Positions 9,001 to 24,000 of a stretch of 64,000 bases of DNA are shown in pieces. A program made the position numbers. The stretch is from Escherichia coli (GTDB lineage: Bacteria > Pseudomonadota > Gammaproteobacteria > Enterobacterales > Enterobacteriaceae): the NCBI RefSeq assembly GCF_041886205.1, contig NZ_CP169030.1. One strand, written 5' to 3'. Position 1 is the first letter of the stretch, and each line of letters opens with the position of its first letter.

Positions 9001-12000
9001 TGCCGCATAATGATAATATAAGTAAAGCCCCGAAAATTTTTCGGGGCTTTACTTATATTATCATGACTTCCACTCCCTGAACTGTTCGGCAATCATCCAT
9101 AATGCTTTGTTGATTCGGATATCACCATCAATACCCGTAATGGCTCTTGTCCTGGTATTTTTACCGGAGGCACTTCGCCCCGACAGTCCACCTTTTATCA
9201 TATTCTCCTGAACCCGCTGCCAGGTTGTCCAGAGATCGTTCTGTTTATCCTCCCAACGACGGGGAGTAATTATTTGTTCAGGCGTCACTGGTGTTTTATT
9301 TTCATCTTCATACCTGACCATCAATGCAGCTCTGCCAAATAAATGTTGCTCGTCACTGTTAAGATGTATTTCTTTCATCGCCTCCATATTATCAGTAACC
9401 TTATCAAAGACACCGAGCACTTCATACGCACCCTCGATAACCTGCCCGACAATATCACCTTTATGTGGAACGCGGATTTCGCCAAAATTATTTCCGCACA
9501 CCAGACCATTTGTGCAGACAAAACGAAAAATTCCGGGGATCATCTGATAACTGGATGAACCATCATGTGAATTAAGCAGGATAATTTCAGGAACTTCTTT
9601 CCCGTTAATATTCCCTTCCCTGCGAAGACGTAACATATGTTTACTGTATTCGCGGCGTCCCAAATCGCGAACCCGACTCTGACAGGCAAAGAACGGCTGG
9701 AAACCTTCATCACGTAACTTATTGATGATATTAATGGTTGGAATATATGTATAACGCTCACTCCGGGATTCATGTTTATCACCGGAAAAGACAGACGGCA
9801 CAAACTGCATTAATTCATCATCCGTTAAAGGACGCTCACGGCGAATGGAATTATACCGACCAAAACGGGAAGCTAATCGCATAACAGTAACTCCTTTATG
9901 AAGGTATAAAATTAATAAAAATTTTTTCGCGTAATATCATCCTCCCTCGGTTATCATTAACAATAAGATAACAATTCCGAGGGAAAGGACCATCAAATCA
10001 GGTCAGTTCGGGACTGACCAACCTGCCGGGTGAAAAGCAGTAACAGCGCGATCAGCTCATCAGCGTTTTTTCTGACAAGAGGGGTATGATTCTCCAGGCT
10101 ATCCAGTAAGTCATGCAGCTCATTATTGACCTGGTGGAGCACCTTAAAAAGCGCCCCTGAATCCTGGTTGCTCTGATAGGCGAGACTGGCCTTAACAGCG
10201 TTATTCTGCATGATCCCGATTTGTGCGATTGCGTCTTTCTGCTGATCGCCTGTTGGCTGATAAGTGGTGTTAAAAGAAAATGCGCTCATGTTTCATTCTC
10301 CTGTGTCTGATGTTTTCAGCCCCCATCATCTGTTGAGTTTCGGGAGCCGCGGTTTTGACGTTTTGCGGGGACCTGCTCTTTGCTCCCTCCGGTATTCACC
10401 ATCACCTGTTTGAGAACCTTCGCCGCATGGGGCATCACTGCCACGGCCGGAAACGACTGTCCGGGGGCAGACCGCAAAAGTTTTTGCCTGCTTTTGGGCA
10501 AAAAGTTTTGCGGGATGTGCATTTCACCCCTGGACTGGCGGAGACGGTTGTGGCTGTCTATGCCCCCGGCGACAGGGGCTTAAACAGGTGAATCGCACCG
10601 GACAGAACAACGGGCAGGGACCCGCCGCAACGACGTGAAGCGCGGTTTGCGAAACGGCGTTGCTCCTTACATCCCGGCGTCTTTTTGCCGGGATGCCGGG
10701 AGCGCAGGTCACGGCGCGACAAGGGTGGCGCGACCGTTCCGGTCGCTGAAAACCCGGGTTTTTGCGTCAGGGATGGAAGCCGCCAGGGCGGAGACAGCTC
10801 CGCTGGCTCCGTTCACGACAGCCCGCCCCGCCAGGGGGACGCCCGGAAAAGGCACTGCCAGGAGAACAACAAAACAGAGAGTAATCAGAGCAGCAGAAAA
10901 AAGAAGAACAGTAGCAGGAACCGCAACATCATCAGTAACAGACAAATGACAGGTCTGAAAAGACAGAAGCCCACAGCAGAACGTCCGCGTAATGAAAGGG
11001 GCGGCGCGTCAGCGCGGCCTTTTTTACCAGCACTGACACCGTGTGCCAGTGCAGCCTCTGGCGACGCTACAGCGCTGCCAGTTCATTCAGGATATGGGGG
11101 TTTCGCTCAACCATTTTCATCAGCAGGATGGCTTGTTTATTAGGTTTAGCCAGTCCCTGCTCCCAGTTCTGCAGGGTAGTGACGCCGGTATGTAAATACT
11201 GTGCGAAAACAGCCTGTGATAGCTTCAATTTTTCGCGTACCGCTTTCACCTCATCGGGCGTCATAGTGACGGGTTTTGCGCTGACCTTGTGTGTTCTCAA
11301 AGTTTTTTTGCCAGCATTAAACTCTCCCCACGCAGCCATGCCTTCCTGCAATTCGCTAAAAATATCACGATCTTTCATCAACGCCCCCTTCGTCTGGCCT
11401 GTTCAAGCATTTCGCGTAAAATATCGCGCTGTGCTTTCGTCAAATCATCTTTCTGGTCTTTGTCATACAGGGTGAACAACAGAAAGTGGGATTTTTCCAG
11501 ATACCAGTAGTAAATCACTCTGATGCCGCCGCGTTTCCCCTTGTTACGCCTTGCATCCCCAAACCGTACCTTGCGCAATCCCCCGGTATGCTGGATAACA
11601 TCACCGCATAACGGATTTTTCAGCAACATCTGCTGAAACTCCCGAAACTCATCATCCGTGAAATATTCAGCACGATGCCGCTCGAACGGCGGCAACTCGA
11701 CAAATAGTGCTTCCATAACACCTCACAAAATCCCCTTTACTTGGGGATATTATACCCCCCAACATGGGGACTCTTCAATTGAGTTCAGACAAAACCTCCT
11801 GCTTTAGCAAGCGTTTCATAGTGCCCAATCAGAAGTTCCAGCCCATCCGCTTTTTTTTGAAAACGGCTGTATGTGAAACCATCGCATCGATCAGTGCATC
11901 AAGCTCTGCGCGGAGCTCCAGTATCCTGGTTGTAAACGTATTTTTGCCCTGGCTGGTCATCCAGTTTAAATATGCCTGTACCGCGCGTTCCTGCATGATT

Positions 12001-21000: not shown

Positions 21001-24000
21001 GGCGGCTCACCTCATCAGTTAAAAGCGCGTTTCAGTTCGAGTGTGCGGAGCACCTGCCCGAAGGCCGTGTTTTTCATGGCGGGGATGTGTACACCACGCC
21101 CCCGGTGAAAACTCCTGGCAATGTGTCGTCCGAAGGCTTTCAGCACGGGGTCAATTTCCGGCGCGGGGATGTCTTCGCGTCTGAAACGGGGATGACGGCG
21201 GGGCTTTACAGCCGCTGCGGAAGGTGAAACAATACTTACTGTCATAATTTAGCCTCTTATGACGTTAATTAATGAAACCGTAAAGACTGTTCGTGCAGTC
21301 TCTGCGGTGTGGATTAAGCAGGTCCCTGACCTGCTTTTTTCATATCTGCATCTGACGCTTTCCGGTGTTTTCCTCCTTCTGTTCCTGCGTTCTCATTACC
21401 TGCCAGCCGGATGACTGACAGAACAAATAAATGCGTATTGCCGGAGCCTGAAATAAATCCTGATTTTTAAAGAACATCACCCGTTGAGTTTCGGGAGCCG
21501 CGGTTTTGACGTTTCGCGGGAACCTGCTGCTGTATTCCCTGTGGTATGAACTTCACCCGTTTGAGAACCTTCGCCGCAAGGGGCATCACTGCCACGGCCT
21601 GACGCACCTGTCCTGGGCAGAACGCAAAATTTTTTACCGGGTTTTGGGTAAAAAATTTTGTGGGCTGTTCATTTACCCTGGACAGTCAGTGCGGCAGGTT
21701 GTGGCTGTATCAGCCCCCGGCGACAGGGACTCATACGGGTGTGTGGCACCCGGCAGGCAATGAGCAGGGACCCGCTGCAACGACGTGAAGCGCGGTTTGC
21801 GAAACGGCGTTGCTCCTTACATCCCGGCGGCCTTTTGCCGGGATGCCAGGAGCGCAGGCCACGGCGCGACAAGGGCGGCGCGACCGTTCCGGTCGCTGCA
21901 AGCCGGGGGTTTTGCGTCAGGGATGAAAGCCCGCCAGGGCGGAGACAGCTCCGCTGGCTCCGTTCACGACAGCCCGCCCCGCCAGGGGGACGCCCGGGAA
22001 AGCCATAAACAGGAGAGGAACGGAAAGAAGAGGAAGAAGAACAGTAACCACAGAAACATAACATCAGGAAAAAACATTCCGGACACATCACAAACGGGAA
22101 GGGAAGCGGGCGACGCGCCAGCGTGGCCCGCTTCCCTTCCGGCAGGCGCCAGCCTGCCAGGGGTTTTCGCGCGGGCTGACAGGCGGCCTCCACCGCCTGC
22201 CCTGTATCACCTGTGCCTGCTGCCCTGAAGGATGTACTGACCACCCAGGAAAACCGCCTGCTGATTCGCCACAAAATCGCAGATTTCATCAACAATCTGC
22301 GCGGTGGTGAGCGGTTTCTGCCCCATTTCACGACGCCGCGCATTAATCACGGCCCTGTAATTACGCAGAATTTCGCGGGTTTCCGTGCTGATATTCATTA
22401 CCCGTTCTCCCCGTCCAGCGCCTGACGCATCACCCGCATAATCTCACGTTCTTCCCTGACAAATGCGTCACCGTCGCCCCCGTTCTCGCTCCCTACAGCA
22501 TGGAGGCGATAAATTTCACTACCAGCCATCACCATCACTTTTTCCAGCAGCACCGCAGGGACTGTTACAAGACGGTTTACGCGCTTTTCCTCCATCAGTT
22601 CACGAACAACGTCGTGAACAATGCTGACATCAGCACCATGCTCAAAGGCATCGTCCAGCCGCTGCATGACGGTTTCCAGCTCATCGTCTGTCAGACTCCA
22701 GTCCTGGGCTATGTGACGCACATCCCCACGGGTCAGCACCACGGCAAAAACGCATTCACTGTCCGGCACGTCTGTATCCAGCACTTCGCGGATAATTTCT
22801 TTAACAGTACAGTACATGTTCTCGTCTCCTTTACAGGGGCGGCATCGCCGCCCCGTCCGTTAATCAGTCCAGTGCTGCGTAAATCGCGTTACATTCGGGG
22901 TGAAATTCGATGTGGCTCCACAACTGCGCATCGCGCATCCGGTAAAGGTGTGTCAGTCCCGCATCCCCGCTGTCGTGGTACAGCCACAACTGGCGGTTAA
23001 TCACAAGGGAAGTCAGGATGATACCTGCGGCATCAGCACTCACAGTGCGGTCAAACCAGTTTTCACCGTTGACCAGATGAAAACGGTCGCCATCCGGCAT
23101 CATGTAACCGCCACCGTCCGGCAGGCGGATGAAATGCCAGAAGCCTCCCTGATATTCCGGCATCATTTTTTGCGCCAGCGCGTACACATACGCCTCGGCA
23201 TACAGAAAATCGTTGCCAAACAGGTAAGGCAGAAAAGAAAGGCGGTCGCACTCTTCAACGTTCAGAGTGACAGATTTCGCATACTGCATGGGATTTCCTC
23301 CGTTGTTCACATATTCCGCGACACCGGGCGGTGCCGTGCCTCCATCTTTGCCGGGCCTGCAGGGTTGCAAGGGCGCAAGGGAAGCCGCAGCCTGACGCAC
23401 ACGGCTGACGGGAGTTGGAGGGTGAGACCGCGAAATCTGAGCGGGTGAACGACCGGAAAATCACGGCAGACGGGAAGGAGGGACCGGGTGACCGCAGCGG
23501 TTCACCTTACCTTGCAACCCGCCCGCAGAAGCCCGGCTACGATGGAGGCACGGCACAGCCCGCACACGACGCTGAGGCTACAGAGTTGAAAACCCACAAG
23601 GCCATGCCCCGCATGGCCGGGTAAAGCGGAGCCGCCGGCGACTTCCTTTTGCTCTGTCCGGGGACAGGCAGGAAAAGGCGGAGATTTTTCCCCGCCAGCG
23701 TCATCATTTCCGGATTTTCGCCAGTGCATCCGCCATGCTGCGGATTTCATCCCGTGCCTCCAGAACAACCTCCCGCAGAATATCCCGGTCAAACCAGCGA
23801 CGGGACGGTTCATCCGGTATACGCAGCACATCACAGACCAGACCACTGGCCAGGATATGCTCCACACACTCACAGACCAGGTACATTTCCACAGAAGAAA
23901 AACGGGCGCCACGGTTCAGAATGGCATCGAGCACCACGGGCAGATTTTCGTCATCTTCATCAAGCCAGCAGGGGTAATCGCTTTCCTTCACCACCAGGCG

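Follow-up and report, generated by a model that had tools for sequence, protein, structure and literature searches.

Why would a conjugative plasmid carry one GC-rich repeat of about 600 nucleotides (nt) four times in the DNA that enters a recipient cell first, always in the same orientation and always beside the start of a gene block? This question is raised by a 64,000-nt stretch of Escherichia coli DNA (assembly GCF_041886205.1, contig NZ_CP169030.1), hereafter the window, identified as leading-region DNA next to oriT in a conjugative plasmid of F type (MOBF, IncFIA-linked). All four repeats are very probably class 1 single-stranded-DNA promoters, known as Frpo, ssi or ssp1. The window itself demonstrates the identity of the repeats, their homology to Frpo, the logic of their strand and orientation, and a strand-specific hairpin supported by covariation.

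Four copies of one element in the leading region

Repeat finding, alignment with MAFFT and a blastn search with copy 2 as query identified four direct copies of one element in the window, all in the same orientation, and the blastn search found no fifth copy in these 64 kb:

10296-10914, plus strand: repeat copy 1, 619 nt, 87.9% identical to copy 2
12805-13426, plus strand: repeat copy 2, 622 nt, the reference for the identities
18208-18810, plus strand: repeat copy 3, 603 nt, 95.1% identical to copy 2, directly upstream of ssb
21475-22016, plus strand: repeat copy 4, 542 nt, 91.9% identical to copy 2

Four copies of about 600 nt at 88-95% identity cannot have arisen by chance, and the multiple alignment confirms a single element. 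GC content is 0.60-0.67 within the repeats (0.62-0.70 in their right-hand part alone) versus 0.34-0.60 in their surroundings, and the copies are spaced 2.5-5.4 kb apart, dispersed over the first 14 kb to enter. Each is joined to the ribosome-binding site and start codon of a gene block on the minus strand: copy 1 ends 7 nt from an ATG at 10289, copy 2 ends 6 nt from an ATG at 12799, copy 3 adjoins the likely ssb start (MAVRG..., about 18186) and copy 4 lies 230 nt from an ATG at 21245. The repeats are not protein-coding DNA, as 1-nt insertions and deletions separate the copies and open reading frames are inconsistent from copy to copy, and Rfam contained no family matching them.

A preliminary description of the window had placed four same-orientation copies at 10312, 12820, 18209 and 21475, within about 15 nt of the starts given here, and had set them beside the starts of minus-strand genes, one directly upstream of ssb; both statements agree with the present analysis, the distances to the gene starts being 6-230 nt. 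It had also regarded copy 4 as 5'-truncated, which proved incorrect: the hairpin of this copy (21488-21805) is complete and only its gene-side junction is variant. The first ~30 nt of copy 4 are divergent (TTAAAGAACATCACCC...), the same variant occurring in Frpo candidates from Serratia and insect metagenomes, and its purine-rich tail is shorter.

The window is F-type in its gene order, with traM through traB on the minus strand at its left side, followed to the right by an SLT transglycosylase gene and then by DUF932, hok/sok, psiA, psiB, ParB-like, ssb, methyltransferase, DUF3560 and antirestriction genes. The transfer origin was located as follows:

8156-8172, plus strand: F-type oriT nic sequence GTGGGGTGTGGTGCTTT, split between GTGGGGTGT and GGTGCTTT, an exact 17/17 match

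The position at which the F relaxase TraI cleaves and the 5'-to-3' direction of transfer are established. With nic on the plus strand, it is therefore the plus strand that is transferred and the DNA to the right of 8165 that enters first; since the genes beside the repeats are all on the minus strand, the transferred strand is their template. Plasmid F carries the same nic sequence on the strand complementary to the sense strand of its leading genes, and the arrangement of the window mirrors it, so that the plus strand had been correctly named as the transferred one. The repeats lie 2.1-13.9 kb 3' of nic, and the earlier view that they are placed as expected for single-stranded-DNA promoters is supported by this strand logic together with the homology described below. 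More than 5000 PLSDB plasmids match the region, the best of them at only ~94-95% identity and 85% coverage.

Homology to Frpo of plasmid F and ssi of IncI1 plasmids

The element with which the repeats were compared, Frpo/ssiD (Frpo1, ssp1a) of plasmid F, is reportedly the subject of work by Masai and Arai in 1997 and by Couturier et al. in 2023. Reference sequences of known Frpo and ssi elements were taken from the supplement of Samuel et al. 2024, and identities to ssiD were computed over 339-349 aligned nt:

Copy 1: 95.7% identical to F ssiD (the original Frpo) over 349 aligned nt; 89.5% to the F Frpo2 fragment
Copy 2: 91.3% to F ssiD; 98.6% to the F Frpo2 fragment
Copy 3: 88.3% to F ssiD; 95.1% to the F Frpo2 fragment
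Copy 4: 83.8% to F ssiD; 94.1% to the F Frpo2 fragment

All four copies thus have the full-length homology to ssiD/Frpo that characterises class 1 single-strand promoters, and judged by sequence they are true Frpo homologues, the homology being confined to the left ~320-350 nt of each copy. They also share the leading-region position of this class, with the transferred strand as template. The regions of F upstream of klcA and of the DNA methylase gene, by which classes 2 and 3 are recognised, matched none of the four repeats.

These relatives have been studied experimentally. For example, the F Frpo2 fragment drove acrIIA4 from the leading strand, with leading-strand-dependent anti-CRISPR protection (Samuel et al.), and deletion of Frpo1 or Frpo2 abolishes early expression, both being needed for ygeA, ssb and yfjA in transconjugants (PMC9849209). 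Similarly, ColIb-P9/pESBL carry three homologous ssi repeats, whose class 1 starts were mapped in pESBL by 5' rapid amplification of cDNA ends, as well as two further, non-homologous classes of single-strand promoter (PMC12672017). A total of 13,089 Frpo homologues has been reported from 6,006 conjugative elements (PMC11541004), and ssp1/Frpo transcripts prime DNA conversion in vivo (bioRxiv 10.64898/2026.01.09.698686).

Copy 1 resembles F Frpo1/ssiD in its 95.7% identity across the 351-nt ssiD, in having the same hairpin and leading-region position and in lying on the transferred strand. However, Frpo1 drives ygeA-ygeB in F, while here copy 2 precedes the ygeA homologue and copy 1 the ygeB (DUF932) homologue, the single F unit being split by an inserted block with its own copy; the Frpo1-type apex is found on copy 1 and the Frpo1-type flanks on copy 2. 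Copy 3 shares the ssb junction of F Frpo2 (ssp1b), but F lacks the block encoding a protein of 76 amino acids (aa), a DUF3560 protein and a methyltransferase that is present here between copies 3 and 4. The IncI1 elements ssi1-ssi3 (ColIb-P9, R64, pESBL) are likewise dispersed direct repeats of the leading region, one of them upstream of ssb, and have the same upper hairpin layout (A/T apex palindrome, 8-10 nt bulge, CCCTGGAC, internal loop). In contrast to the repeats described here, their hairpin is about 177 nt long rather than 319 nt, is ~80% identical over ~80-100 nt only and lacks the TTGACG of the F-type stem base, and their relaxase family is MOBP.

More remote parallels are the single-strand origins of rolling-circle replicons and the hairpin promoters of phage N4, in which folded single-stranded DNA is likewise read by RNA polymerase, but these are unrelated in sequence and much shorter, and the N4 polymerase is a different enzyme. 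The N4 case is mentioned in PMC13037366.

A strand-specific hairpin conserved among the copies

When single-stranded, the left ~320 nt of every copy form a single long imperfect hairpin of 318-319 nt, with fold energies of -97 to -101 kcal/mol, and so each has the long imperfect transferred-strand stem-loop of class 1:

10337-10655, plus strand: copy 1 hairpin, Frpo1-type, DNA fold -100.9 kcal/mol
12845-13163, plus strand: copy 2 hairpin, -97.8 kcal/mol, z = -10.73
18233-18551, plus strand: copy 3 hairpin, single-stranded DNA fold
21488-21805, plus strand: copy 4 hairpin, complete, -97.3 kcal/mol, z = -10.22

Longer segments gave z = -12.75 (671 nt around copy 1) and z = -6.79 (675 nt around copy 3). 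Covariation was assessed in an alignment of eight sequences, namely the four copies, F ssiD, one Serratia candidate and two insect-metagenome candidates. The predicted pairing held in 95.5% of paired cells, compared with 42-50% when the partners were slid by 1-3 columns, and compensatory changes on both sides were found at 12 pairs versus 1-4 in the slid controls. In all four copies, as well as in ColIb-P9 ssi2 and ssi3, the transferred strand forms the more stable hairpin, by 9-17 kcal/mol over its complement, and this hairpin has about twice as many G-T pairs. Such a bias is the pattern expected if selection acts on folding of the transferred strand.

GC-rich hairpins between operons, inside which a simple scan reported terminator-like stems, might also be ordinary double-stranded regulatory DNA (constitutive promoters or terminators) or a functionless, selfish miniature repeat. 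Either is very improbable, as linear scans of the repeats revealed no sigma-70-like promoter, T-runs are missing from the stems on the mRNA strand, neither terminal inverted repeats nor target duplications are present, and thousands of plasmids keep the same position and orientation with respect to oriT. A miniature transposable element or repetitive extragenic palindromic (REP-type) sequence was likewise rejected, the copies having one orientation, being fused to gene starts and ending in gradual homology boundaries.

Candidate promoter elements within the stem

A transferred-strand stem carrying -35- and -10-like elements had been anticipated in the preliminary description. The stem was found, but the predicted hairpins carry no canonical linear TTGACA-N17-TATAAT, and the two elements could be placed only tentatively. 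Their placement follows a layout of the 3' arm common to F-type and IncI1-type elements. Read from the apex, it consists of an A/T palindrome, a bulge of 8-10 nt (TTCATTTA here), CCCTGGAC(A/T/G) in perfect duplex, a helical spacer of 17-18 bp (in Frpo2-type copies 21 nt, of which 3 nt are bulged out), an internal loop with a weak hexamer (TGTATC or TGTCTA) and a GC clamp. In copy 3, for example, a -35-like TGGACA (18424-18429) lies in perfect duplex and the hexamer TGTATC (18451-18456) in the conserved internal loop. The candidate positions, all on the plus strand, are:

18424-18456, plus strand: tentative promoter core of copy 3 in the 3' arm, from motif positions and pairing diagrams
10531-10536 and 10555-10560, plus strand: tentative box equivalents in copy 1
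13036-13041 and 13063-13068, plus strand: tentative box equivalents in copy 2
21679-21684 and 21706-21711, plus strand: tentative box equivalents in copy 4

The motif T(G/A)GAC is kept in the F-type, ColIb-P9, Serratia and insect sequences, with TTGGAT or TTGCGC in its place in distant Salmonella candidates. It is suggested, with low to moderate confidence, that TGGACA serves as the -35 element and the pre-opened internal loop as the -10 position; with similarly limited confidence, a start ~7 nt beyond this -10 position would give leaders of roughly 130-140 nt. Two other placements were discarded. TTGACG in the 5' arm with TAT(T/G)(A/C)A 32 nt downstream has an impossible spacing, and TTGACG is absent from ColIb-P9; the 8-nt bulge as -10 would force the -35 into the terminal loop and fails in insect variants without the A/T apex.

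Gene blocks downstream of the repeats and further probable early promoters

The blocks that begin at the four copies, and two further regions with homology to early promoters of F, are listed below:

9061-10289, minus strand: block 1, downstream of copy 1, encoding a 98-aa protein and a DUF932 protein (F ygeB homologue)
11067-12799, minus strand: block 2, downstream of copy 2, encoding a ygeA homologue, an orphan 110-aa protein, an 81-aa paralogue and a toxin-antitoxin pair
13702-18186, minus strand: block 3, downstream of copy 3, with ssb, DUF905, ParB-like, psiB, psiA (frameshifted) and hok/sok
18992-21245, minus strand: block 4, downstream of copy 4, encoding a 76-aa protein, a DUF3560 protein and a class I S-adenosylmethionine-dependent methyltransferase
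23294-23697, plus strand: homologue of the F class 2 (ssp2) region, upstream of an antirestriction (klcA/ardB-type) gene, 88.6% identical to F
25892-26331, plus strand: homologue of the F class 3 region, upstream of the DNA methylase gene, 95.9% identical to F

The DUF932 label of block 1 derives from annotation in related plasmids. In block 2, the ygeA homologue encodes 89 aa (79 of 85 residues identical to F YgeA), the 81-aa protein is a paralogue of the 98-aa protein of block 1, and the toxin-antitoxin pair consists of an MqsA-family antitoxin and a 112-aa neighbour that matches phrog_5869 and is annotated as toxin or HigB-2 in related plasmids. This cargo between copies 1 and 2 has a low GC content (0.34-0.48). 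Among 5.8 billion proteins, its orphan 110-aa protein is represented by just two clusters at 90% identity, and it matched no Pfam, NCBIfam or PHROG family. In other plasmids a homologue 82% identical to it follows IncI-type ssi repeats at a distance of ~195 nt, and the protein, placed here under its own repeat copy, is a candidate to be tested for a role in establishment or anti-defence. In PLSDB, block 2 was not present in full in any record, and the two-copy arrangement around it recurs in several E. coli draft assemblies.

The ParB-like protein of block 3 (652 aa) is a homologue of YfjB/HerB. Within the same block, a 1-nt deletion near 14743 splits the 239-codon psiA gene (14131-14850, minus strand); of five related E. 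coli contigs compared, three (L006, L008, L010) have no called psiA. A frameshift near 25695-25701 similarly splits the F-type DNA methylase gene (25204-25887, minus strand).

The 230-nt leader between copy 4 and the 76-aa gene of block 4 encodes the antisense RNA AS-pc01 (Rfam RF02875, 98.9 bits, at 21240-21339, plus strand), with a promoter-like site at 21205-21233 and a terminator-like stem at 21316-21336, both on the plus strand. AS-pc01 overlaps the leader and start codon of the 76-aa gene in antisense; as it would be made only from double-stranded plasmid, it may shut this gene down once the plasmid is established.

In F and pESBL, the promoters of classes 2 and 3 have the same proposed action in the same region, but no sequence similarity to the four repeats; the class 2 homologue at 23294-23697 is unrelated to them. 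The class 2 promoter and its roadblock have been described (PMC12672017; bioRxiv 10.64898/2026.01.09.698686), ssp2 acting as a roadblock to complementary-strand synthesis and ssp3 having no roadblock activity (bioRxiv 10.64898/2026.01.09.698686). Class 3 was defined in PMC12672017, and its expected position is upstream of the DNA methylase gene. With homologues of both at 23294-23697 and 25892-26331, the leading region probably comprises six early units, four of them class 1. The four early-gene blocks that had been proposed are therefore retained as the class 1 blocks, but they are not all of the early blocks.

A conserved extension beside the hairpin

The ssiD sequence stops at ...GGCGTTGCCCCTTA, but the repeat runs on for another ~250 nt, and this extension is also present in both F copies and in the ColIb-P9 ssi2 and ssi3 repeats. 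The GC-richest ~250 nt of the repeat correspond to the extension and lie outside the ssiD sequence listed for F. It consists of a 9-bp hairpin (hairpin A), a 56-nt core and a purine-rich tail:

10661 to about 10850, plus strand: copy 1 extension, followed by the purine-rich tail
18566-18650, plus strand: conserved part of the extension in copy 3, with hairpin A at 18566-18591 and core at 18595-18650
10670-10695 and 10699-10754, plus strand: hairpin A and core in copy 1
13178-13203 and 13207-13262, plus strand: hairpin A and core in copy 2
21820-21845 and 21849-21904, plus strand: hairpin A and core in copy 4

The 9-bp stem of hairpin A is formed by CATCCCGGC/GCCGGGATG, and in the insect-metagenome, Salmonella and ColIb-P9 sequences, read directly, it is replaced by different, still complementary stems. 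The core contains GGCGCGAC twice and the palindrome GCGACCG-nnn-CGGTCGC, and is 95% identical between IncF-type and IncI1-type elements, although their promoter hairpins align over only ~79 nt at 82%. Owing to 1-nt insertions and deletions between copies, the extension is non-coding. The palindrome centre (10739-10741, 13247-13249, 18635-18637, 21889-21891) reads GAA in one pair of copies (2 and 3) and TTC in the other (1 and 4), a difference equivalent to inversion of the loop. A lone 56-nt core without a promoter hairpin was observed in pUC4224_1 (L001, 6315-6370), between a 100-aa gene and ygeA, and is probably the scar of a lost repeat. Among the matches listed in a contig scan for GGCGCGACCGNNNCGGTCGC, the GC-rich palindrome matched unrelated high-GC genomes. 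BLAST searches with the core and with ColIb ssi3 each matched at least 5000 near-identical records, and those listed added no diversity.

It is possible, if doubtful, that the extension, which follows the hairpin into the recipient, forms a second functional module not yet described. It could stall or prime the synthesis of the complementary strand as this approaches from the 3' side, and so prolong the single-stranded state of the promoter, or it could end transcripts that read through from the preceding block while the template is single-stranded. Binding of the core by a ParB-like protein is unlikely, as chromatin immunoprecipitation sequencing of HerB/YfjB showed no enrichment on F. The conserved extension is the only feature of the repeats that was not found described in the literature examined, and is the sole new open point.

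Copy number and mosaicism

The repeats occur in more than 5000 public plasmids. Three copies are usual in related plasmids, and four are uncommon but not rare. Among the best 5000 PLSDB records, 60 were sampled at spread positions; one, two, three and four matching places were found in 6, 16, 31 and 7 of them, respectively, and the mean over all of the best 5000 was 2.7. Two of the four-place records were inspected: both show the common order of three gene blocks, and one has its third copy split into two places by an insertion sequence; since a split copy counts as two places, the number of four-copy plasmids is an upper bound.

The copies are also mosaic. Copy 2 combines F Frpo1 flanks with a Frpo2-type apex, and F Frpo2 matches copy 3 on its left side and copy 4 on its right, a chimera that explains the absence of block 4 from F. 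It could therefore be asked whether the repeats persist mainly as homologous-recombination modules, cassette boundaries at which blocks are shuffled, inserted or deleted. This would fit the mosaic copies and the F Frpo2 chimera, which is as expected from recombinational loss of block 4 in F, as well as the extra unit that block 2 forms between two copies, the 56-nt core remnant between two genes in pUC4224_1 and the same kind of exchange in IncI plasmids (Venturini et al., PMC3817090). However, recombination would accompany any repeat of 600 nt as a side effect, and as a main role it is improbable because it leaves unexplained the conserved hairpin, the compensatory changes, the strand bias and the fixed orientation to oriT.

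A model for early expression and its alternatives

If the repeats are single-stranded-DNA promoters, the relaxase would nick the plus strand at 8164/8165 and the strand would enter the recipient 5' end first, each block delivering its genes first and its repeat afterwards. Once inside, the ~320-nt imperfect palindrome would fold into the long hairpin, and the host sigma-70 RNA polymerase would treat its stem as promoter duplex; leftward transcription on the transferred strand would then produce block mRNA before the complementary strand exists, and the RNA-DNA hybrid could also prime synthesis of that strand. Once the hairpin had been copied into ordinary duplex the promoter would be gone, making expression transient. 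The four copies would drive four blocks, encoding the 98-aa and DUF932 proteins, YgeA with the rare low-GC cargo, ssb-psiB-psiA-hok, and the 76-aa, DUF3560 and methyltransferase proteins. Polymerase recognition, start sites, early induction and priming would in this plasmid follow the precedents of F and ColIb-P9/pESBL; transient induction of downstream genes in new transconjugants, for example, was demonstrated for the F and pESBL homologues (PMC9849209; PMC12672017). As class 1 promoters, the repeats would be active only in single-stranded form, and their transcription by sigma-70 holoenzyme would be stimulated by SSB.

Alternatively, selection may act mainly on the priming of complementary-strand synthesis at regularly spaced sites, gene expression being secondary. 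In favour of this, F ssiD was originally obtained as a single-strand initiation sequence, Frpo RNA acts in vitro as a primer for DNA synthesis (reviewed in PMC7690428), early conversion near ssp1/Frpo is rifampicin-sensitive in vivo (bioRxiv 10.64898/2026.01.09.698686) and the four sites are spread over the first 14 kb that enter. Nevertheless, every copy is connected to a gene start with its ribosome-binding site and the strand logic fits expression, Frpo deletions abolish early protein production (PMC9849209), and rifampicin left overall conversion unblocked (bioRxiv 10.64898/2026.01.09.698686). A primarily priming role is thus tenable but the less likely reading, and as it is compatible with expression it is an added function more than a true rival.

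Several observations weigh against early expression from all four repeats. Neither a consensus scan nor a relaxed linear scan found a TTGACA/TATAAT pair with 15-19 nt spacing in any hairpin, and the placement of the boxes is tentative, the weak hexamer of the internal loop lacking the usual A at -11. In addition, any long palindrome folds on both strands, so that the strand preference is only quantitative, and recombination or gene conversion accounts for part of the similarity between copies and could preserve an inactive one. The antisense-RNA leader of 230 nt after copy 4 may mean that the output of this copy is regulated differently. Finally, function in this plasmid is deduced from homology and structure.

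Part of a colibactin island in the same window

Beyond the leading region, the minus strand of the window carries the 3' portion of the colibactin (pks) island at 44193-63329 (clbK-L-M-N-O-P-Q-S), with clbO-S 99.6% identical to chromosomal genes. It is joined to the backbone by traD and TIGR03747-family genes of the type found in integrative and conjugative elements (39742-43111) and by a Tn3-family transposase gene (36231-39215), and the IncFIA backbone carries repE/ccdAB/pifC and sopAB. Coverage of the stretches spanning the pks junction stayed below 80% in every PLSDB plasmid and every complete RefSeq E. coli genome. The pks island is normally described as chromosomal (PMC13246691). The arrangement could represent a plasmid-borne pks island, or a plasmid integrated next to pks.

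Significance for plasmid establishment

The kind of element found here, its mechanism and its wide distribution have already been published, and in this respect the finding is right but ordinary. The repeats are relevant to the spread of plasmids and of resistance, and within the window they map which genes probably come on first.

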